This document shows positions 1,636-46,067 of a DNA stretch of 64,000 bases, piece by piece (position 1 is the first letter of the stretch; each line of letters starts with the position of its first letter). The notes under the pieces are model-generated. The model was not told where the DNA came from, made no database searches, and was given only the letters and a program-made list of their open reading frames with translations. The position numbers and the translations under genes were made by a program. This DNA comes from an uncultured Chloroflexia bacterium (GTDB lineage: Bacteria > Chloroflexota > Limnocylindria > Limnocylindrales > CSP1-4): contig CAWEKG010000002.1 of NCBI GenBank assembly GCA_963809595.1, forward strand, positions 800,391 through 864,390. Reading direction: 5' to 3'.

Positions 1636-2352
1636 ATGCCGGGAACCGAGCGTCCCCCCGATGTCCCCGCGGTCGACGTCGAGCCCGTCAACGGCTCGGG
1701 ATCGAACGGCCATCACGCCTCGCCCACCCTCCGTCGTGACATCGTGGTCCACTTGCGCCAGTCCGGACCGTCGTCACCAGACCAGCTGGCCGTCCAGCTC
1801 GGGGCCAGCCGGACGGGGGTGCTCCAGCAGCTCCGCGCGCTCGAGACCGCCTTCCTGGTGACCCGCCGGACCGAGCGTCACGGCGTCGGTCGGCCGCGTC
1901 ACCTGTACGACGTGACCGCGGAGGCCCAGGACCTCTTCCCCTCGAACTACGACGGCCTGGCCGCCGGGCTCCTGGCGGCCATCGAGGCGGTCGGCGGCGA
2001 CGACCTGCTCGAGGAGGTCTTCGCGGCCCGTCGACGACAGGCCGTGGGACGGATCCGCGAGCGGATGGCCGAGCGACTGGCCCCCGATGCCAGCCTGGCC
2101 GATCGGGTCCGCGAGCTGGCGGTCATCCAGGACGAGCAGGGCTACCTGTGCGCGACCGACGTCGACCCCGACGGGACGATCCGGCTGACCGAGCACAACT
2201 GCGCCATCTTCGGGGTCGCCAACGGGACGCCGGCCGCCTGCCAGGCCGAGCTCGACCTCTTCCGCGAGGTCCTCGGCGTGGAGGTCGTCCGGGACACCCA
2301 CATCGCGGCCGGTGATCGATGCTGCTCCTACCGGGTGGTCCGCCCGGACTGA
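1636..2352 (+). CDS. SufR-like / ArsR-type HTH regulator with C-terminal Cys cluster
   Basis: Winged HTH (LAVQLGASRTGVLQQLRALE, GRPRHLYDVT) plus C-terminal YLC, EHNCAI, AAC, RCC. Confidence 0.8.
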   Translation: MPGTERPPDVPAVDVEPVNGSGSNGHHASPTLRRDIVVHLRQSGPSSPDQLAVQLGASRTGVLQQLRALETAFLVTRRTERHGVGRPRHLYDVTAEAQDLFPSNYDGLAAGLLAAIEAVGGDDLLEEVFAARRRQAVGRIRERMAERLAPDASLADRVRELAVIQDEQGYLCATDVDPDGTIRLTEHNCAIFGVANGTPAACQAELDLFREVLGVEVVRDTHIAAGDRCCSYRVVRPD

Positions 2353-2394
2353 GCCCCCGGGGCCGGCTCGGGTGGGCGGCCCCGATCCGGAGGC

Positions 2395-3444
2395 CTACGC
2401 CTCCTCGCGCTCCACGGCGACCCGCGACGCCGGCGCCACGAGCGGCCGCGGGACGTCGCTGACGTTGCGCACGAAGGACGCCGCGAGGCTGGTCTCGGCG
2501 ACCCGCTGCTGGTCCTCGAGCGACAGGATGCCCAGCCGACCGAGGGTGGCCAGCTCGTCGCGGATGTACGTCTTGAGCATCTCCGGACCGTCCGTGTTGA
2601 TCGTGAAGCGGACCCCGTTGCGCCGGAACTGGTCGAAGATCCAGCGGAACTCCTCCCAGCCCGAGACCACCCGGGTGTTGAGGTTCGAGGTCGGGCAGAT
2701 CTCCAGGACGATGCCCCGATCGGCCAGCATCGCCATCGCCCGGGGGTCGTAGGCGGCCTTGACGCCGTGCCCGATCCGGTCCGGCTCGAGCAGCTCGATG
2801 ACCCGGGCGACCTCCTCGACCGGGCCCGACTCGCCGGTGTGGACGGTCAGCCCCAGGCCGAACTGGCGGGCCCGACGGAAGAGCCGGCGGTAGTCGGCCA
2901 CCCGGAAGGTGGTCGACTCGGGTCCGGCGATGTCGACCCCCACCACGCCGCGGTCGCGCCAGGAGATCGCCTTCTCGACGAGGATCTCGTTGAGCTCGAA
3001 GGGAAAGGCCCGGTCGAGGCAGAAGATCAGGCCCGGCCTGACCGGGTATTCGAGGGTCGCCTTGTCCATCCCGCGGAGGGCCGCCGCGATGATGTGGTCG
3101 AGGTCCTGCTCGCCGCCCCGGTTCCGCTTCATCGGGTTGAAGCGGAGCTCCGTGGTGGTCACGTTGTTCTTGCGGTAGGCGCCGCCGATGACCTCGTAGA
3201 CCGCCCGCTCGACCGCCAGCGGGCTGGACTGGATGAGCTCGGTCCAGTGGAACAGCTGGAGGTAGCCGTCGAAGCTCCGCGCCCGGCGGGGCGAGACGGT
3301 GATGAGGTCGCGGAACTCCCAGTAGTCCTTGGTCGGGAGCTTGATCCCCTGGCTGTGGGCGATCCCCCACATGATCGCGGGGGTCACCGCGCCGCCGAGG
3401 TGGCAGTGGAGCTCGGCGAGGGGTATCTTCCGCGACAGGGGCAT
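2395..3444 (-). CDS. add: Adenosine deaminase
   Basis: ELHCHLGG, TVHTGE, RIGHG, ICPTSN, INTDGP metal-site motifs; ATG at 3444. Confidence 0.88.
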   Translation of the reverse strand: MPLSRKIPLAELHCHLGGAVTPAIMWGIAHSQGIKLPTKDYWEFRDLITVSPRRARSFDGYLQLFHWTELIQSSPLAVERAVYEVIGGAYRKNNVTTTELRFNPMKRNRGGEQDLDHIIAAALRGMDKATLEYPVRPGLIFCLDRAFPFELNEILVEKAISWRDRGVVGVDIAGPESTTFRVADYRRLFRRARQFGLGLTVHTGESGPVEEVARVIELLEPDRIGHGVKAAYDPRAMAMLADRGIVLEICPTSNLNTRVVSGWEEFRWIFDQFRRNGVRFTINTDGPEMLKTYIRDELATLGRLGILSLEDQQRVAETSLAASFVRNVSDVPRPLVAPASRVAVEREEA

Positions 3445-3573
3445 GCCGCGAGGATACCCGATGGCGGGTGACGAACGGCACTGTCCGCCCGGGTCCGGCC
3501 CGGCCGACCATTCGGCGTCTGGGGTCCGGGGCCCGCGACGATCGCCGATCGTCGGCAAGGAGGAGACACGACG

Positions 3574-4500
3574 ATGATCATCACCACACGACGTCTCGCC
3601 GGCCTGGCCGGTGCGGCGCTCTTCGTCCTGGGCGCCTGCTCGACCGGCACCGCGAGCACGGCTCCCTCGGCCGCGCCGTCGGTGGCCGCCTCGGTCGCTC
3701 CGTCGACCGCTCCGTCCGAGGCCGCCTCGGTCGCTCCGTCGGCTCCGGCGATCGTGGTGCCGGCCGCCATCACCGCCGCCGGCAAGCTGGTCTGGTGCAG
3801 CGACGTCAGCTACGCGCCGGAGGAATTCTTCAAGCCCGACGGGACCACGCCGCAGGGCTCCGACGTCGACATCGCCACCGACATCGCGAAGCGCTTCGGG
3901 GTGACCGCTGAGATCGACAACACCGGCTTCGACGGGATCATCCCGGCGCTGACCGCCAAGAAGTGCGACCTCATCATCAGCGGGATGAACGACACGCCGG
4001 CGCGCCGGGCGCAGGTCGACTTCGTCGACTACCTCAAGGTCGGCCAGGGCCTCCTCGTCCCGGCCGGCAACCCCAAGGGCATCAAGACCCTCGAGGACCT
4101 GTCGGGCAAGACCGTCGCCGTTCAGTTGGGGACGACGAACAAGGACGCCCTCGACGCCGCGAACGTGAAGCTCGCCTCGGCCGGCAAGCCCCCGATCGAG
4201 ATCCAGACCTTCCAGCAGGACACCGACGCCTTCCAGCAGCTGAAGCTCGGCCGGGTCGACGCCTACTCGACCGACTCGCCGGTGGTGGCCTACTACAACG
4301 CCCTTCCCGAGAACGCCGGCAAGTTCGAGGTCGGTGGCACGCCGATCGACCCGATCTTGATCGGGATCGCCGTCCGCAAGTCGGATACCGAGCTGAAGGC
4401 GGCCGTCCAGGCGGCCATCGATGCGATGTACGCCGACGGGACGATGAAGACGATCGTCGACGCCTGGGGCATGACCAACGCGGTGGTCCTGCTCAAGTAA
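3574..4500 (+). CDS. Polar amino-acid ABC transporter substrate-binding lipoprotein
   Basis: Lipobox LGAC, S/A/P linker, SBP family 3 motifs (FDGIIPAL, DLIISGM, VAVQLGTT); SD AAGGAGG. Confidence 0.92.
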   Translation: MIITTRRLAGLAGAALFVLGACSTGTASTAPSAAPSVAASVAPSTAPSEAASVAPSAPAIVVPAAITAAGKLVWCSDVSYAPEEFFKPDGTTPQGSDVDIATDIAKRFGVTAEIDNTGFDGIIPALTAKKCDLIISGMNDTPARRAQVDFVDYLKVGQGLLVPAGNPKGIKTLEDLSGKTVAVQLGTTNKDALDAANVKLASAGKPPIEIQTFQQDTDAFQQLKLGRVDAYSTDSPVVAYYNALPENAGKFEVGGTPIDPILIGIAVRKSDTELKAAVQAAIDAMYADGTMKTIVDAWGMTNAVVLLK

Positions 4501-39751: not shown

Positions 39752-41941
39752 CTACCCGGCCGGCGTGCGACGCCTCCTCAGGGGCGCCTCCCGGAGCTCC
39801 CAGTCCGGGCGGATACGGGGCAGGCCCTGGACCGTCCAGGCGATCCCATACCACACGTCCGCGCTGCCGGACCAGCGTCGGATCCTGATCGTATAGGTCT
39901 CTCCCGGGCGCGCGTCGAACTCCGCGATCTCATAGCTGTTGTCCCACGAGCCGCTGTACCCGACCAGCGAGCCGCGGCTGTCGTAGACCTTCAGGTCGAG
40001 ATCGAGCTGGAGGGTGTCCCAGCCGACCTGGATGAAGAGGATGTCCTGGATCGTCGCCAGGCTGTCCCACGCGAGCGCGACCTTGACCCTCGGCGTGAAG
40101 AACAGCGCCGGCACGGTCACCTGGTAGACGAACGTCGTCTCGCCGTTCGCCCCGATGTCGCTCGATCGGAGTGTGCCGACGTCCCAGCCGCGGCGGGTCC
40201 CGGCCGAGCCGCGAGACCGACGGCTCTGCGCGATCCGCACGCCTTCCAGGGCGTCGACGGCGCCGGAGCCGTCGGAGGCGTCGATGCCCGCGCTGCGGTC
40301 GGCCCACCAGGTCGCCCCGCCGACATTCCGACTGGCACCCGCGAGCAGGATGGCCCGGCAGCCCTCGGGCCAGGACTGCAGGGTGGTGCTGGCTTCCTGG
40401 AGCAGAGCCGTGCAACCGGCCGCGGCGGGCGCCGCCATGCTGGTGCCGCTCAGGGTCAGCTTGACCGCCGTGACCGCCATCCCGTTCGCGGCGATCTCCG
40501 GCGACTCGCGGTCGCCGTGCGCGGACGCGGCGTTGCGAAAGACAGAGTCGCTGGCCATCGCCGTGGCGGTGTCGTTGTGACTGCCGACCGCGAGGCTGTT
40601 GAAGCCCTTGTGGTTGACGTACTCCGTGCTCGTGCCGTTGCCGGCCGCCTGGAGGATGGTGGGGTACGGCCAGTGCAGGACCAGCCAGTCCTTGTACATG
40701 TCGTCGAACGACAGGCCGGAGTCCGTCTGCTCGGCCTCGCGATGGAAGCTCTGACTGATGACCGTGCAGCCGCGGGTGCGGGCCGCCCAGCTGATCGCCG
40801 CGAGCGCCATGGTGTTGGCCGAATGCAGGTTGCACCCGGACGCGTGCCCGTTGGGCAGGCCGGCCTCGGTGTTCCTGATGATCCCGTGGGTGTGGCGCGA
40901 GTGCTGCGTCGTCGCCGGGCTGGTCGTGAAGGAGGCCGCGATCGCGAGATCGGCGGTGCTGTCGGGGCCGTCCTCGTAGACGGCCACGTTGACCCCGCTA
41001 CCGGTCAGACCCAGGCTCGACTGGACCGTGTCCGACTGGGCGATCGCCATGGAGTCGGAGAGGTCGAGTCGCCCCTCGGTCTCGTGCAGGAAGAGCGCGG
41101 CGATCTCCGGGTACTCCTCGAGCCGGCGGATGCTCGCGACGGGCAGGCCGGCATACACCACGGGTGCGTGCAGATCGGGCTCGACGTCCTCCGCGCCGTG
41201 CTCGCGCAGGATCCTGGCGACCCGCTCGGCCGCCTTCGCCGCACTGCCAGCTCGCTCGATCTCCGCCGGCGGCGGCTTGGTCGTGGCGCCCCGCTGACGC
41301 TTGGCGTGAAGCTTGGCCGGGGGGAGCTGGAGCCAGACCGCCACCGGCAGACGCTCGTCGTCGCGGCGCTCCTCGACCGCCCGGTGCAGCGTCGGATGCA
41401 TCTTGCCGAACGTGCCCTGGCGATCCCGGACGATCCGGGCGAAGACCTCATCCGGGTCGATCCTGGCGCCGTCCTGGTCGAAGGCGAGCTCGACCGGCTT
41501 GCCCGTCCGCCGGTCGACCGCCTTCATGATCTCGATGAACGGCCCGTCGGGCCGGGCCGGTTCCGGCAACCTGACCGTGCCCAGACGCTCGACGCGGAGA
41601 CGCACCAGGGTCTCGATCCGCAGCGACGACCCGACCTTCGCCACCGAGTCGCTGACGAAGAACGGCACCCCCAGGCGATCCCCGAGACGCCTGCCCGTGG
41701 TCGAGACCAGCTCATCGACGGTCAGGATGTGTGGCCCCGGTGGCAGGTCGTCGTCCGGTATGGCGGTGACCGTGCGCCCGTCGTCCGAGAGCGCGACGGT
41801 GAGGTGGTGCTGGCCGAGGCCAAGCGCTCCTCGAGCGGTCTCGGGATCGAGCGGGGCGTGTGCCCGGACCTCGAGCCGAGGGGATCCGAGCACGATCTCG
41901 TACGGCTCGACGCTGACCTCGACGGGTCGCCGGTCGGGCAT
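39752..41941 (-). CDS. S8 subtilase with N-terminal Ig-like and pro regions and C-terminal jelly-roll domain; Glu in place of the catalytic Asp
   Basis: VAVYEDG, HSRHTHGII, AAGNG, SGTSMAAP, C-terminal DLDLKVYD; SD GAGGAGG; no signal peptide seen. Confidence 0.88.
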   Translation of the reverse strand: MPDRRPVEVSVEPYEIVLGSPRLEVRAHAPLDPETARGALGLGQHHLTVALSDDGRTVTAIPDDDLPPGPHILTVDELVSTTGRRLGDRLGVPFFVSDSVAKVGSSLRIETLVRLRVERLGTVRLPEPARPDGPFIEIMKAVDRRTGKPVELAFDQDGARIDPDEVFARIVRDRQGTFGKMHPTLHRAVEERRDDERLPVAVWLQLPPAKLHAKRQRGATTKPPPAEIERAGSAAKAAERVARILREHGAEDVEPDLHAPVVYAGLPVASIRRLEEYPEIAALFLHETEGRLDLSDSMAIAQSDTVQSSLGLTGSGVNVAVYEDGPDSTADLAIAASFTTSPATTQHSRHTHGIIRNTEAGLPNGHASGCNLHSANTMALAAISWAARTRGCTVISQSFHREAEQTDSGLSFDDMYKDWLVLHWPYPTILQAAGNGTSTEYVNHKGFNSLAVGSHNDTATAMASDSVFRNAASAHGDRESPEIAANGMAVTAVKLTLSGTSMAAPAAAGCTALLQEASTTLQSWPEGCRAILLAGASRNVGGATWWADRSAGIDASDGSGAVDALEGVRIAQSRRSRGSAGTRRGWDVGTLRSSDIGANGETTFVYQVTVPALFFTPRVKVALAWDSLATIQDILFIQVGWDTLQLDLDLKVYDSRGSLVGYSGSWDNSYEIAEFDARPGETYTIRIRRWSGSADVWYGIAWTVQGLPRIRPDWELREAPLRRRRTPAG

Positions 41942-41954
41942 GACTGCCTCCTCG

Positions 41955-42599
41955 CTACGGGAAGATCTCGCCGACGAACCAGGTACTGGCGGAGACCCAC
42001 TGGTTGCCGGCACCGCCCCAGCCCTGGTCAACGTAGAACCAGCGGTCGTAGACCGTGGTGTCCCAGCACCAGATGAAGCAGGTCCGGACGGTGCGCTCCT
42101 GGTAGGCATAGCCGAACGCCATCGGGTAGTGGCTGAGCCAGCCGGTGCCGATGACCGCCGGGGTCGCCCGGTACCGGATGCTGTCGCGAGCTCGGTCGCG
42201 GATCCAGTCCTGGCACCAGCCGATGCTGTTCCAGCCGGCTCGCAGGCTGGTGTACGACCGACCGGTCAGGTAGTGCCAGGCGTCGGCCATGCGCCATGGC
42301 CAGGTCGCGCCCGAGCCGGCGATGCAGAACGTTCCCACGTAGCCGTGGATCTCGCGGATGACGTTCTCCACCCCGGCGTCCTGGTTGACGGGCGCCAGTG
42401 CGTCGGCGCCGTAGCCGCCGTTCTGGCGATAGAGGCCGTTGCGGGGTGCCCAATAGCCGTTACCGAGACCGGCCTGGCGGTCGGCCCAGCCGAAGAGCAT
42501 CGCCCACGCGACGGGTCCGCAGCCCACGGCGCAGCCGCCAAAGGGGAACTGGTAGTAGTTCGGGACCGGGGGCGGAGCCCACCAGTACGAGTAGGCCAC
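41955..42599 (-). CDS. Papain-fold cysteine protease catalytic domain (C10 streptopain-like)
   Basis: Q17, GC27GPVAW, SH157YPMAFGY, FYVDQGWGG; SD AAGGAGG 9 nt before GTG. Confidence 0.75.
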   Translation of the reverse strand: MAYSYWWAPPPVPNYYQFPFGGCAVGCGPVAWAMLFGWADRQAGLGNGYWAPRNGLYRQNGGYGADALAPVNQDAGVENVIREIHGYVGTFCIAGSGATWPWRMADAWHYLTGRSYTSLRAGWNSIGWCQDWIRDRARDSIRYRATPAVIGTGWLSHYPMAFGYAYQERTVRTCFIWCWDTTVYDRWFYVDQGWGGAGNQWVSASTWFVGEIFP

Positions 42600-42601
42600 G
42601 G

Positions 42602-43699
42602 CTACCGCCCTCCTTCGGTCGAGGTCGTTCGCTGGTTCGACGGTGACCCGGACGCGACGAGGAAGAAGCGCAGTCGCTCGTCCGTGCCGTCGGGGTAGCG
42701 GATGTCCACGAAGAGGTCGATCTCGCCGGCGATCGCGGCACCCCCTTTCACCGTCAGGACGAGCGCCGGGATCCCCGGTGTCTCATCGAGCCGGGCGACG
42801 ACATGCCGGGCGCCCTCGCCACTGAGCTCCACCGCGGCTTCACGCTGGAGCAGGGCCACGCGATGGGTCTCCCCTTCATGGATGCCCTCACCGAACTCCT
42901 CGATGAGCGCCTCCACCTCCCAGGCGCGGGCCGCCTGCCGACGCAGCTCGTCGAGGAACGGCCCGAACGAGTCGGCGTAACGCTCGCGGAACGACCCCCA
43001 GTCGTCCGCCTCGATGGGCTTGAGGTCCGGGACCCGGTCCTCGGTCCGGGTGACCTGGTGTTCCACGCCCTCGGCCTGATCGTCGGACTTCACCTCCCCG
43101 GCCGGCGTTGCTTCGAGGGTCGACCGATCGCTCGCGGAGCGCCGCAGGTCGTGGGGCAGCCCGGTGACGAGGCCGGGCATCTGGCCGACCCGTCCCACCA
43201 GCGTCCCGTCCTTCGCCTCGGCGACGTAGGCCAGGGCGTCGAGGCGGTAGATCCGCTCGATCTCACCGCCCTTCTCCCCCGCCGCCCGGAGCTGTCCGCT
43301 GATCGGAGGCAGGTCCAGGCTCCAGTGCGGAATGGGGAAGTCATGCGGCCCGGTCGAGACGACGATGAACCCGCGATCCGACGAGGGGGGCGGTTCGGGA
43401 CGGCCCCTGAGACCCAGCTCGGACCGCTTCGGGCGGGCACCGGTCGTCCTGCGTTCGGTGGCCAGCAGCGCGGAGAGCTCGGCTGCCGAGGTGACCAGCC
43501 GGGTCGGCGAGGAACCCAGGTCCACGGCGAACTCGTAGTAGGCCACCTCCTCGAGATCGGGGCGATGGATCGGCCAGGCCTCGTCGGCCAGCTTGGCCAT
43601 GCCAGCGTTCGGCGCCATCGGCGTCCCGCGGATGGACTCGAGGTGCTGGGCGGCTTTGCGCCGGATCGGCACCGGGACCCTGGACAGCTCGATCGACAT
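42602..43699 (-). CDS. Spi/I69-like pro-domain or inhibitor protein with C-terminal beta-rich extension
   Basis: YYEFAV...GFIVVSTGPHDFPIPHWS resembles the C10 propeptide pattern; SD AGGAG; no signal peptide seen. Confidence 0.55.
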   Translation of the reverse strand: MSIELSRVPVPIRRKAAQHLESIRGTPMAPNAGMAKLADEAWPIHRPDLEEVAYYEFAVDLGSSPTRLVTSAAELSALLATERRTTGARPKRSELGLRGRPEPPPSSDRGFIVVSTGPHDFPIPHWSLDLPPISGQLRAAGEKGGEIERIYRLDALAYVAEAKDGTLVGRVGQMPGLVTGLPHDLRRSASDRSTLEATPAGEVKSDDQAEGVEHQVTRTEDRVPDLKPIEADDWGSFRERYADSFGPFLDELRRQAARAWEVEALIEEFGEGIHEGETHRVALLQREAAVELSGEGARHVVARLDETPGIPALVLTVKGGAAIAGEIDLFVDIRYPDGTDERLRFFLVASGSPSNQRTTSTEGGR

Positions 43700-43951
43700 G
43701 ACGCCCCGCTCCTGGCTGATCCGAGTCGAGCGGCGACCTGTCTCGCCCTCGAGGGTGACAGCCACGAGGGGGTTGTCGAATCGCGAAGGGACGCAGAACG
43801 GGACTCGCCTGGATCAACTTCGCCGGCCCCGTCGGCGCCCCGGTCCGCGTGTTCGGCGCGGCAGTCGTCGACCCGAGTCTGCGCCCGAAGTGGGAGCGGT
43901 CAAGTCCTGATCGTGCCGGTACTTTGGGGCCCGCGCCGGCCGTACCGGGAC

Positions 43952-43987: not shown

Positions 43988-44548
43988 ATGAACACGAGAC
44001 TCACCGCCGACGAGCGCCGCGACGAGGTGATCGCGGCCGCGACCATCGAGTTCGCGGCCGGCGGCTTCGCCGGCACCTCCACGAACGCGATCGCCCGCCG
44101 GGCGGGGGTATCGCAGCCCTACCTCTTCCAGCTCTTCCGGACCAAGCAGGAGATCTTCCTGGCCGCCGTCCGGGGGTGCTTCGACCGTACCGGCCGGGTC
44201 TTCGAGGAGGCGGGCCGGGCCGCCCAGACCGCCGGTCTCGACAGCGAGGGGATCCTCATGCGGATGGGCGAAGCCTACGTGAAGATGCTCCTGGCCGACC
44301 GCAACAGCCTCCGGCTCCAGCTCCACGCCTACGCGGCCTGCTCGGACCCGGATGTCCGGGCCGTCGTCCGGGATGAGTTCTTCGCCCTGTGGCACCGGGT
44401 CGCCCGGCTGTCCGGAGCTGACGTGTACGGGCTCCACGCCTGGTTCGCCCAGGGGATGCTGATCAACGTCATCGCCAGCGTCGGCGACGCGCGGACCGTC
44501 GAGGAGTTCAACGCGACGCTGCTCGGAGGTGTCGCCGCCCGGAAATGA
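43988..44548 (+). CDS. TetR/AcrR-family regulator
   Basis: HTH: FAAGGFAGTSTNAIARRAGVSQPYLFQLFRTK. Confidence 0.93.
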   Translation: MNTRLTADERRDEVIAAATIEFAAGGFAGTSTNAIARRAGVSQPYLFQLFRTKQEIFLAAVRGCFDRTGRVFEEAGRAAQTAGLDSEGILMRMGEAYVKMLLADRNSLRLQLHAYAACSDPDVRAVVRDEFFALWHRVARLSGADVYGLHAWFAQGMLINVIASVGDARTVEEFNATLLGGVAARK

Positions 44549-44636: not shown

Positions 44637-46067
44637 ATGACCCGCCGATCCTCAGCCACCTGGACCTTCATGATCACCGCGCTGGCCCTGTTCATGGTCA
44701 GCCTCGACAACCTGGTCGTGACGATGGCGCTGCCCGTGATCCGCCTGGATCTCGGTGCGTCGCTGGCCGACCTCGAGTGGACCGTCAACGCCTACACCCT
44801 GACCTACGCGGCCCTCCTCCTGTTCGGCGCCGCGCTCGGCGACCGGTTCGGGAGACGGCGGGTCTTCGTCATCGGCCTGGCGATCTTCACCCTGGGCTCG
44901 GCCGCGGCAGCCCTCGCGCCGACCAGCACCGCGCTCATCCTGGCTCGTGCGACGCAGGGCCTCGGCGCCGCCTTCGTAACCCCGCTGAGCCTGACCATCC
45001 TGTCCGCCGCCGTCTCGCCGGCCCGACGGCCGCTGGCGCTCGGCGCCTGGGGCGGCATCTCGGGCCTGGCCATCGCCATCGGTCCGGTCGTCGGCGGTGC
45101 CATCACCCAGGGCGCCGACTGGCACTGGATCTTCTGGCTCAACGTCCCGATCGGGATCGTCGGGGTGATCCTGGCCGCCCTCCGGCTCGACGAAAGCCGC
45201 GGGCCGGACCGCGCCCTCGACGTGCCCGGGGTGGCCCTCGCCGGGGCCGGGCTGATCGGCATCGTCTGGGGCGTCACCCACGGCAACGGCCTGGGCTGGA
45301 CCGATCCCCAGGTCCTCGCCGCGATCGCCGTCGGGACGGCGCTCATCGCCGCCTTTATCGCCTGGGAGGCCCGGACGGACCAGCCGATCCTGCCCCTCCA
45401 GGTCCTCGGCCGACGCGGTTCGGTCGTCTCGAACGGCGTCTCGTTCCTGATGTCCTTCGGGATGTTCGGCTCGATCTTCCTGCTCTCGCAGTTCTTCCAG
45501 GTGGTCCAGGGCCTCAACCCGTTCGAGGCGGGCCTCCGGGTCCTGCCATGGACAGCGATGCCCATCTTCGTCGCCCCGATCGCCGGGGTCGCCTCGGCCA
45601 GGATCGGCGCTCGCCCGATCATCGCCGCGGGGCTCGCCCTGATGGCCGTCGGCCTGGCCTGGATCGCCGCGGTCAGCTCGACCACCGTCGCGTACTCCAG
45701 CCTCGTGCCGGCGTTCATCCTCAGCGGCGTGGGCATGGGCCTCTTCTTCGCCCCGATCGCCAACGTCGTCCTGTCGGCCGTGCCGCGGGAGGACGAGGGC
45801 AAGGCGTCGGGGGCCAACAACACCATCCGCGAGCTGGGCGGGGTCTTCGGGGTGGCGGTCCTGGCCGCGGTCTTCTCGGCCAACGGCTCGTACCAGTCCC
45901 CGGCCCAGTACGTCGCGGGTCTCACCCCCGCGGTCGCCGTCGGCGCCGCCGTGCTGGCCCTGGGCGCCGTGCTTGCCCTTGCCCTCCCCCGCTACGTGAG
46001 GGGCATGCGGCTCGCCGAGCCGGAGACGAGCGTCGCCTTCGGGGACGCGGAAGGGGCAGCGGCCTGA
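44637..46067 (+). CDS. DHA2 (14-TM) MFS efflux transporter
   Basis: LDNLVV, W..NAYTL, GDRFGRR, GP.VGG, IF..NVPIG. Confidence 0.92.
   Translation: MTRRSSATWTFMITALALFMVSLDNLVVTMALPVIRLDLGASLADLEWTVNAYTLTYAALLLFGAALGDRFGRRRVFVIGLAIFTLGSAAAALAPTSTALILARATQGLGAAFVTPLSLTILSAAVSPARRPLALGAWGGISGLAIAIGPVVGGAITQGADWHWIFWLNVPIGIVGVILAALRLDESRGPDRALDVPGVALAGAGLIGIVWGVTHGNGLGWTDPQVLAAIAVGTALIAAFIAWEARTDQPILPLQVLGRRGSVVSNGVSFLMSFGMFGSIFLLSQFFQVVQGLNPFEAGLRVLPWTAMPIFVAPIAGVASARIGARPIIAAGLALMAVGLAWIAAVSSTTVAYSSLVPAFILSGVGMGLFFAPIANVVLSAVPREDEGKASGANNTIRELGGVFGVAVLAAVFSANGSYQSPAQYVAGLTPAVAVGAAVLALGAVLALALPRYVRGMRLAEPETSVAFGDAEGAAA

Follow-up and report, generated by a model that had tools for sequence, protein, structure and literature searches.

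That the pro-region of a protease chaperones and inhibits the enzyme of which it is a part is textbook knowledge. To our knowledge, the action of a pro-region in trans is known almost solely from engineered constructs, and the natural free propeptide homologues that we know of, such as Spi, are extra copies that stand beside a protease retaining its own propeptide. Among the described systems, the free propeptide analogue Spi is encoded next to the protease SpeB, according to PMC2873492, which cites Kagawa 2005, and the staphopain–staphostatin and Bacteroides Bfp–Bfi operons each pair a protease with a dedicated protein that controls it (PMC2873492). The lipase-specific foldase Lif is a steric chaperone made from a separate gene, and the classic examples of such chaperones are the pro-regions of subtilisin and alpha-lytic protease (PMC3352829).

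The locus described here lies in a window of 64,000 nucleotides (the whole stretch of DNA that was analyzed) from an uncultured Chloroflexia bacterium, in which two adjacent genes, A and B, appear to encode the pro-region-like and the catalytic part of a distantly C10-like cysteine peptidase. Their features, and the gene that follows them, are:

42602..43699, minus strand: gene A, 365 aa, a detached pro-region-like partner without signal peptide
43295..43699, minus strand: N-terminal subdomain of A, residues 1–135, candidate counterpart of the C10 propeptide (I69)
43319..43372, minus strand: motif GFIVVSTGPHDFPIPHWS, A residues 110–127, the most conserved stretch of A in the alignment of its homologues
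42656..42889, minus strand: Ig-like beta-sandwich of A, residues 271–348, from AF2 strands and Foldseek
42597..42616, minus strand: coupling junction, with the Shine-Dalgarno (SD) sequence GGAGG within the last codons of A, TAG, a 2-nt spacer and the GTG of B
41955..42599, minus strand: gene B, 214 aa, a papain-fold, distantly C10-like cysteine peptidase domain
42549–42551 and 42519–42521, minus strand: codons of Q17 (putative oxyanion Gln) and C27 (putative nucleophile)
42129–42131 and 42027–42029, minus strand: codons of H157 and of D191, the latter with the D/N-Q-G-W-G-G motif
39752..41941, minus strand: S8 subtilase-like gene, 729 aa, 13 nt downstream of B, with its own SD (Pfam Peptidase_S8, 1e-10)

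An earlier note on this DNA had read the two genes as a split streptopain-like zymogen, with the caveat that an indel might have created the split. Its reading of the junction was borne out: gene A ends GGAGGGCGG-TAG-CC-GTG with the SD inside its last codons, the minus strand from the end of A to the start of B being GAAGGAGGGCGG-TAG-CC-GTG. Ahead of the B start, the frame does stay open for about 61 codons (275 aa for the frame, 214 aa for the ORF), so that a single indel could fuse the A and B frames, and the split would then be a sequencing or assembly artefact or a recent pseudogenising frameshift in one true gene. We assign this explanation a negligible probability, and the caveat falls away in the face of the comparative data. 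Independent assemblies of near relatives (L012, L013 and L014), whose A proteins are 71–93% identical, retain the identical stop, 2-nt spacer and start, and close homologues are two polypeptides from separate genes. The two-gene layout occurs in 56 of 80 species-level genomes, with −4 to +20 nt between the A stop and the B start; these 56 species share the type of junction, display all three frame relations, and have their own start codons and SD sites (50 of the 56 have an SD-like site within the last part of A). In addition, the B homologues share one start residue in the alignment, and dN/dS values well under 1 (0.27–0.50 for A, 0.02–0.18 for B) indicate purifying selection on both genes. 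The two-gene split is real and inherited, and is not an indel artefact. Recoding of the two frames into a single chain was also ruled out, because all three A–B frame relations occur across these gaps. The pattern as a whole is far beyond chance, with 215 B homologues (181–221 aa, 58–92% identity) and 120 A homologues (210–408 aa, all annotated “hypothetical protein”) of matching separate lengths, and the split pair is found in at least 8 phyla (Actinomycetota, Chloroflexota, Pseudomonadota, Bacteroidota, Verrucomicrobiota, Gemmatimonadota, Acidobacteriota, Fibrobacterota, Myxococcota). Gene A evolves at 2 to 20 times the rate of B, which was counted in favor of the pro-region reading; pro-regions and inhibitors are typically fast-evolving.

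A three-gene cassette that would include the S8 subtilase was considered and rejected: of the loci L001–L094, only those of the near-identical relatives L012 and L013 have the S8 gene downstream of B. Clustering of the flanking ORFs of 81 loci yielded no recurrent family as a third conserved gene beside the pair. The S8 subtilase is a lineage-specific neighbor outside the conserved module. GC content is flat at about 0.70, with no compositional island, and the promoter and terminator scan came back empty.

Gene B starts with GTG (MAYSYWW) and encodes neither a propeptide nor a signal peptide, its start lying 2–3 residues ahead of the first conserved strand. The residues Q17, C27 and H157 and the VDQGWGG sequence named in the earlier note were all found at their positions; the first three are invariant in 36 of 36 aligned B sequences, and at position 191 the window copy has D (FYVDQGWGG) where at least 90% of sequences have N. 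In their order, Q...C...H...N/D-x-G-W-G-G, these residues carry the signature of papain/C10 proteases. The AF2 model of B (pLDDT 90.4) is papain-like, with C27 beginning helix 27–44, H157 just ahead of strand 160–174, and D191-Q-G-W-G-G after strand 178–191. In other words, the predicted structure has the Cys at a helix N-terminus, the His before a strand and the N-W-G-W-G-G-type motif following, as the fold would have it. Searches of Pfam, NCBIfam, PADLOC, PHROGs and PDB sequences returned nothing significant for B.

How closely B is related to streptopain is a separate matter, and here the term “streptopain-like” used earlier holds for a distant relation only. The Peptidase_C10 HMM (PF01640, cut-off 26 bits) did not match B at E ≤ 1, no family matched B at E ≤ 10, and an HMM search of the window's whole own genome found PF01640 absent. 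Sub-threshold PF01640 matches were obtained for 4 of 36 split and 14 of 45 fused relatives (best E 4.4e-4), and the four relatives viewed in detail scored 10–16 bits against the cut-off of 26. Because C10 genes were found neither in the window's phylum nor in five genomes that host the split pair, the reference C10 domains were drawn from Bacteroidota genomes. Using hhalign with relaxed settings, 183 B domains aligned with 13 of these Bacteroidota domains at a probability of 91.9% (E 6.9e-7, 173 columns), with a score of 50.2 versus 13.3 ± 2.6 (maximum 23.2) for shuffled profiles; with the split clade alone, the probability was 24% (P 8e-4). The profile alignment pairs the Cys (C27 with the Cys of G-C-V-A-T-A), the His and the N-W-G-W-G-G motif. 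Against a closer kinship, no C10 structure appeared among the top 50 Foldseek matches of the B model in the PDB, where the best solved matches were UfSP1/2 (probability 0.90–0.96, E 6e-3, TM ~0.41, 11–15% identity), and the C10 trait of being a secreted zymogen with a covalent propeptide is absent in split B, though present in the fused relatives. As a comparison of profiles, the B–C10 match supports a superfamily relation rather than family membership.

Gene A starts with ATG (MSIELS), a start that the homologues favor over a longer GTG start at 43765. Its AF2 model (pLDDT 80.7) consists of an N-terminal alpha/beta subdomain, a long helix (residues 234–269) and a C-terminal Ig-like sandwich. 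The last part resembles Rib, PAD4-Ig and Siglec-type Ig domains in Foldseek (probability 0.99–1.0, E ~1e-3 to 1e-2); a search with the whole of A gave generic Ig-like matches only, confined to the C-terminal part, and neither Pfam, NCBIfam, PADLOC and PHROG nor PDB-sequence searches matched A. The size of A and its Ig-like domain would fit a substrate-binding subunit too. An enzymatic role for A was considered and dropped, because the split and fused A regions share no invariant set of catalytic-looking residues.

The earlier description of the upstream protein as I69-like is no more than suggestive. The motif on which it was based is present, and no other block of A is as conserved: F111, D120, P122, H125, W126 and S127 are invariant within the split clade. 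The Inhibitor_I69 HMM (PF13734) matched neither A nor its 38 split homologues at E ≤ 10, had no match in three genomes at the same threshold, and matched 1 of 45 fused relatives at E 0.17; moreover, A is a three-part protein of 365 aa and not an inhibitor of about 100 aa. Profile comparison by hhalign between A and C10 propeptides gave P values of 0.023 for the whole of A, 0.0042 for the full chain, where the match is colinear with the catalytic one, and 0.0034 for the N-terminal subdomain. The subdomain scored 23.7, compared with 9.9 ± 2.0 for shuffled profiles (0 of 200 as high), 7.7 for the reversed one and 12–13 for cross-controls, at an HHsuite probability of just 2–10%. The best alignment lands on the flagged motif, GFIVVSTGPHDFPIPHWS, set against the G-f-v-i-v-S-a-D-d-R..i-l-G-Y-S block of C10 propeptides. 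The colinearity of the propeptide match of A with the catalytic match of B was counted in favor of the pro-region reading. These profile scores are suggestive of homology between the N-terminal subdomain of A and the C10 propeptide.

The wider family puts the pair in perspective. It comprises 478 clusters at 50% identity, in which every named member is a “hypothetical protein”. Its dominant form is a single secreted chain in which a signal peptide, in some cases followed by further domains, precedes the A region, and a short linker leads from there to the C-terminal B: among 121 family representatives with a length of 450 aa or more, 117 have A immediately ahead of B, joined by a linker with a median of 23 aa (range −9 to 51 aa), and fused examples with signal peptides occur in the window's own phylum. 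By a crude hydrophobicity rule, an N-terminal hydrophobic signal is present in 79 of 105 fused proteins versus 0 of 120 split A proteins, and split B likewise has no signal peptide. The motif region of the A N-terminal subdomain was found in 116 of 122 fused representatives, 15 of which keep it while being devoid of the Ig-like part; residues 1–135 are thus the part of A most constantly retained beside B across the family. The clade to which the window belongs has this chain severed within the linker into two translationally coupled genes, neither of whose products has a signal peptide. On the B-domain tree, the split forms fall on one side of a single branch (1 change; 0 of 500 shuffles as low), a branch whose own support is weak (SH-aLRT 10). 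The core of the split-zymogen claim made earlier is supported, both by the single-chain form that dominates the family and by the conserved two-gene version in the window; its mechanistic part, an obligate trans pro-domain resembling a toxin/antitoxin pair, is something that we infer.

Most likely, A folds and/or masks B in trans. The fuller reading, of an unnamed C10-like family that is naturally split and in which A is the detached pro-region chaperoning and/or masking B, strikes us as somewhat better than evenly probable. A would be made first, from an mRNA shared with B, and would bind nascent B non-covalently via its conserved I69-like N-terminal subdomain, serving as the private folding chaperone and/or active-site mask of B; B would cleave its substrates only within a regulated A–B complex, or once A is removed. 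Since neither protein carries an export signal, this action would probably take place in the cytoplasm. A possible but unlikely alternative is that A stays with B for good as a non-catalytic subunit that recognises substrates or scaffolds or localises the enzyme, and is neither chaperone nor inhibitor, so that fission simply produced a heterodimer. The large size of A (365 aa), with a C-terminal Ig-like subdomain of a kind used in binding, is what such a subunit might look like; A is also kept, under purifying selection, in all split genomes, and the linkers of the fused relatives, even at up to 51 aa, have no recognisable conserved cleavage site. Weighing against this, the best-conserved part of A resembles a C10 propeptide and not a binding module, the 15 fused subfamilies without the Ig-like part still have the propeptide-like part, and A evolves much faster than B.

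The chaperone and/or mask reading also has to be weighed against two proposals about B itself. In one, which we regard as quite improbable, the pair is a switch like a toxin–antitoxin or abortive-infection system, with B as a cytoplasmic protease toxin and A as a labile antidote derived from B's own propeptide. The pair has the layout of a type II toxin–antitoxin system (adjacent and translationally coupled, with the putative protective gene upstream), and other traits agree: the lack of export signals on both proteins, the patchy presence (3 of 301 genomes of the window's phylum, 0 of 16 same-family genomes), variable neighbors that at one locus include PemK and an integrase, and the decay of a B copy without A (L077) into a truncated remnant without the catalytic Cys, a finding that was counted in favor of the main reading as well. 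Yet tblastn searches of 72,556 plasmids and 50,697 phages came back empty, PADLOC gave no match, and no DNA-binding domain (HTH, RHH or AbrB-type in Pfam) was found in A, which is far bigger than typical antitoxins; in 5 of 6 inspected neighborhoods, the surrounding genes are ordinary housekeeping or metabolic ones. A related and bolder formulation, that a normally extracellular C10-like protease was moved to the cytoplasm as an intracellular proteolytic switch and lies latent under its detached pro-region as a labile antidote, we consider about as improbable. If it were true, B would be let loose on targets in the cytoplasm once A was lost or its removal was triggered (e.g., by stress or by attacking phages), a toxin–antitoxin or abortive-infection logic built from a zymogen. 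The other proposal, in our estimate very unlikely, makes B some other papain-fold thiol enzyme (an amidase, small-modifier deconjugase, acyltransferase or transglutaminase-like enzyme) to which A presents the substrate. The best solved structural matches of B, the Ufm1-specific deconjugases UfSP1/2, would agree with it, as would the fact that no curated peptidase model scores above threshold. It is at odds with the profile homology to C10 endopeptidases, in which Cys, His and GWGG are aligned, with the protease-like order of the conserved residues, and with the secretion of the fused relatives in the manner of C10 proteases.

It appears, then, that evolution itself made the cut between pro-region and catalytic domain here, and that the split arrangement has been long kept and passed between at least 8 phyla. 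Given that the two-gene form is genuine, heritable and present in no fewer than 56 species, the pair offers a natural model in which to study a protease pro-domain in trans, and a system for asking whether an untethered pro-region serves in folding, in inhibition or in targeting. The function of a C10-like protease in an intracellular setting can be addressed with it as well. Carriers of the split pair include the culturable, non-pathogenic Elioraea tepidiphila, Pseudoduganella violaceinigra, Massilia eburnea, Tateyamaria omphalii and Microbacterium spp. More broadly, a sizeable protein family outside all curated models has now been defined and tied to C10.

Compared with known systems, the fused relatives are built like the C10 zymogens (streptopain SpeB, interpain, Bacteroides Bfp/Btp), with signal, pro-region and papain-fold catalytic domain in that order; the catalytic Cys, His and N-x-G-W-G-G align, and the putative propeptide motif aligns at the same relative place. 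The A–B family differs in scoring below the Pfam C10 and I69 thresholds, in having its Gln 10 residues ahead of the Cys, and in a pro-region of about 340 aa with an extra helix and an Ig-like domain, A being three times the size of known C10 propeptides; in the window's clade, moreover, the pro-region has a gene to itself, and export signals are absent from both proteins. UfSP1 and UfSP2 (family C78) are the best solved structural match of B and share its papain-like fold, but the TM score is only ~0.41 and no sequence-profile link was seen. Their catalytic order is Cys...Asp...His, unlike that of B. Lif resembles the role proposed for A, as a private trans folding helper encoded next to a single client and doing the job of a propeptide; it differs in not being derived from its client's propeptide and in being periplasmic with a lipase as client, and it has no sequence or fold relation to A. 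The staphopain–staphostatin and Bfp–Bfi operons likewise co-transcribe a clan CA cysteine protease with a partner, which in their case controls the protease in the producer cell; staphostatins, however, are small, lipocalin-like, unrelated to propeptides and encoded downstream, and the proteases are secreted zymogens. SpeB–Spi shares with A–B a free protein, a homologue of the propeptide in the case of Spi and a candidate one in that of A, which is encoded beside, and co-transcribed with, a cysteine protease. SpeB retains its covalent propeptide and Spi is an extra, cytoplasm-guarding copy, whereas B has no propeptide at all, so that A, encoded upstream and translationally coupled to B, would be its sole pro-region.

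The pro-region-like gene A and the peptidase-domain gene B lie in tandem on the minus strand, as one copy in their own genome, with the following features in and around the pair:

39752-41941, minus strand: S8 subtilase-like gene, 729 aa, co-oriented and 13 nt after B
41955-42599, minus strand: gene B, 214 aa, GTG start (MAYSYWW...), directly 3' of A
42602-43699, minus strand: gene A, 365 aa, ATG start (MSIELS...)
about 43988-44548, plus strand: TetR-family regulator gene, divergent, upstream of A
44637-46067, plus strand: MFS transporter gene, divergent, upstream of A

All sequence details that the earlier note had listed were found in the window: B carries Q17, C27 and H157 together with FYVDQGWGG, residues 110-127 of A read GFIVVSTGPHDFPIPHWS, and the junction reads GAAGGAGGGCGG-TAG-CC-GTG, with a Shine-Dalgarno GGAGG inside the last A codons and 2 nt between the TAG stop and the GTG start of B. 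Translation of B is coupled to that of A. Upstream of its start, the B frame does stay open for about 61 codons.

The surroundings of the pair vary. The TetR start lies about 288 bp from the A start, and the TetR and MFS layout is matched in the near-identical locus L012 and absent from more distant carriers. The S8 gene, which has its own GAGGAGG site, no N-terminal hydrophobic segment, a Pfam S8 match spanning residues 376-537 only and a weak PPC-like C-terminus, follows B only in near-identical L012 and L013. When the flanking ORFs of 81 loci were all clustered, no recurrent third gene family emerged, and the other neighbourhoods are unrelated (TyrRS, UvrB, AraC regulators, FeoAB, chemotaxis genes and, at one locus, PemK with an integrase).

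The earlier note had cautioned that one indel would fuse the two frames, and the comparative evidence makes such an artefact very unlikely. Close homologues are two polypeptides: among 215 B homologues, the matches listed are 181-221 aa long with 58-92% identity and a common start residue, while the 120 A homologues (210-408 aa) include no protein of fused length, and gene-by-gene inspection of six public contigs found an A homologue directly upstream of the B homologue. The stop, 2-nt spacer and start are retained in L012, L013 and L014, near relatives from independent assemblies. In a sample of 80 species-representative genomes encoding a B relative, 56 carry separate A and B genes and 19 one fused gene, with 5 undecided. 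The distance from A stop to B start in the 56 split genomes is -4 to +20 nt (-4 to +5 in 49 of them), B starts with ATG in 50, GTG in 5 and TTG in 1, and 50 have an SD-like site ahead of B. All three kinds of frame relation between A and B occur among these genomes, which argues against programmed recoding into a single chain. Compared with relatives, B has a dN/dS of 0.02-0.18 and the faster-evolving A one of 0.27-0.50; both genes are maintained. We therefore consider the chance that the split is an artefact to be negligible.

The B profile, searched exhaustively against 1.84 billion cluster representatives, matched 478 proteins at E<=1e-3. The stand-alone form makes up one single cluster at 50%, and nearly all other matches are proteins of 450-2130 aa with a C-terminal B domain. 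Of the 121 representatives that reach 450 aa or more, 117 place an A region immediately before B in the chain, with a median linker of 23 aa. Two fused examples come from the Chloroflexota, the phylum of the window (846 and 639 aa), each with an N-terminal signal peptide. A simple and crude hydrophobicity rule finds a signal-like N-terminal segment in 79 of 105 fused proteins and in none of 120 split A proteins, and B has no room for a signal peptide; an export signal is absent from both split proteins. A-B is a two-gene module that is conserved and stands on its own, has intact catalytic residues, and descends from a secreted zymogen-like protein of one chain. The earlier note's reading is thus partly supported, in the split and in the zymogen-like ancestry. 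Three giant fused-family representatives, P0242 (1846 aa), P0374 (2130 aa) and P0245 (1462 aa), have 900-1900 extra N-terminal residues ahead of the A-B unit.

In a maximum-likelihood tree built from 183 B domains, a single branch separates split from fused forms, which amounts to 1 change, compared with a mean of 48.7 in label shuffles (0/500 as low), although the branch itself has weak support (SH-aLRT 10). Because the fused forms show much greater diversity and have the same order as C10 enzymes, pro-region then catalytic domain, the direction was likely one fission followed by horizontal spread of the split form. The distribution is patchy, with a B domain in 3 of 301 genomes of the phylum and in none of the 16 genomes that belong to the same family as the window; by record titles, the split form reaches Actinomycetota, Chloroflexota, Pseudomonadota, Bacteroidota, Verrucomicrobiota, Gemmatimonadota, Acidobacteriota, Fibrobacterota and Myxococcota. 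Base composition is even, with GC at about 0.70.

Searches of Pfam, NCBIfam, PADLOC, PHROG and PDB sequences gave no significant match for B. Its confident AF2 model (pLDDT 90.4) shows the marks of a papain-like fold: helix 27-44 begins at C27, H157 lies just ahead of strand 160-174, and N/D191 ends the next strand, followed by Q-G-W-G-G. Among solved structures, Foldseek ranks the papain-fold UfSP1/2 highest (probability 0.90-0.96, TM ~0.41), and no C10 structure is among the top 50. Pfam Peptidase_C10 matched 4/36 split and 14/45 fused relatives below threshold (10-16 bits, where the cut-off is 26, for four matches seen in detail; best E over all relatives 4.4e-4), and the long matches are colinear across profile positions 5-193 of 194. 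Using hhalign with 13 bona fide C10 domains from Bacteroidota genomes, the broad B profile scored 50.2 (91.9%, E 6.9e-7) against the catalytic domains and 13.3 +/- 2.6 (maximum 23.2) against column-shuffled C10, while split-clade-only B scored 30.2 (24%, P 8e-4). The alignment, 173 columns under relaxed settings, pairs C27 with the G-C-V-A-T-A cysteine, H157 with the catalytic His, and N-Q-G-W-G-G with N-W-G-W-G-G. These scores and aligned residues make B a distant relative of C10 in clan CA that falls outside the C10 family by curated thresholds, so that the label "streptopain-like" holds at superfamily level and fails as family membership. Two cysteine pairs of B (window 41955-42599, minus strand) vary together within the split clade: C23 and C92, invariant in secreted fused forms, are replaced jointly in three aligned homologues, and C173 and C177 (C-F-I-W-C) in about four others. 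These look like disulfides that are dispensable in some cytoplasmic split forms.

A matched no curated family in the same searches. Its AF2 model (pLDDT 80.7) has three parts: an N-terminal alpha/beta subdomain (residues 1 to ~230, disordered insert 86-106), a long helix (234-269) and a C-terminal beta-sandwich (271-348) for which Foldseek found generic Ig-like domains only. The I69 HMM did not match A and matched 1/45 fused relatives (E 0.17). The best hhalign match of A to the propeptides that belong to the 13 C10 domains above falls exactly on the motif that had been flagged as Spi/I69-like, pairing A-Y-Y-E-F / G-F-I-I-V-S-t-G-x-H-D-x-P-I-x-H-W-S with y-x-F / G-f-v-i-v-S-a-D-d-R-x-x-i-l-G-Y-S. 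Whole A scored 22.2 (P 0.023) and the N-terminal subdomain 23.7 (P 0.0034), against 9.9 +/- 2.0 for column-shuffled propeptides (maximum 16.8, 0/200 as high), 7.7 for reversed propeptides and 12-13 for non-cognate comparisons; with the full fused chain against full C10, a second match (32.3, P 0.0042) is colinear with the catalytic one. Since HHsuite's own probability is just 2-10%, we regard the I69 likeness of the subdomain as suggestive. The fused-form architecture is independent support for the match: 116 of 122 fused representatives contain the motif region and 104 the Ig-like part, and 15 have the former without the latter. In L035, a locus of an Elioraea sp. MAG (2139-3606), only the N-terminal part of A (profile positions 1-162) precedes B and then overlaps its frame, either a natural deletion retaining just the propeptide-like subdomain or an assembly error. 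Near the C-terminus of split-clade A proteins (window 42602-42650, minus strand) lies a T-P-S-N-[RK]-R motif, with P353 and S354 kept in at least 90% of sequences and a variable, low-confidence tail after it; the motif could dock on B. No catalytic-looking residue set is invariant across split and fused A regions, so A is probably not an enzyme.

We lean, with modest confidence, towards A being a detached pro-region, which would bind nascent B through its I69-like subdomain and, in the cytoplasm, would help B fold as its dedicated chaperone and/or mask the active site. Other readings, which overlap in part, have to be weighed against it. A may be a permanent substrate-binding subunit, a possibility we hold as doubtful. 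A toxin-antitoxin-like switch, a special case of the inhibitor idea, seems improbable to us: A-B has no PADLOC match and none among 72,556 plasmids and 50,697 phages. That B is a non-peptidase thiol enzyme is about as improbable. One B-like frame stands without A, that of L077 in Sulfitobacter sp. DFL-14 (2917-3525). This frame covers profile positions 42-217, is missing residues 1-41, the catalytic Cys among them (no Q17/C27 equivalent), has no A gene within 3 kb upstream, and is probably a decayed remnant.

All database names seen for A and B relatives are "hypothetical protein", no curated model covers the family, and our literature searches found no account of it or of a natural split C10-type zymogen. 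The fused relatives resemble C10 zymogens in how they work, and the split pair recalls SpeB-Spi, where the gene next to the protease codes for an unattached analogue of the propeptide, as well as the staphopain-staphostatin and Bfp-Bfi operons (PMC2873492). In those systems, however, the protease keeps a covalent propeptide and is secreted. As a separately encoded private folding helper, the closest functional analogue is the lipase foldase Lif, a steric chaperone in the same class as the pro-regions of proteases (PMC3352829) but unrelated to its client.
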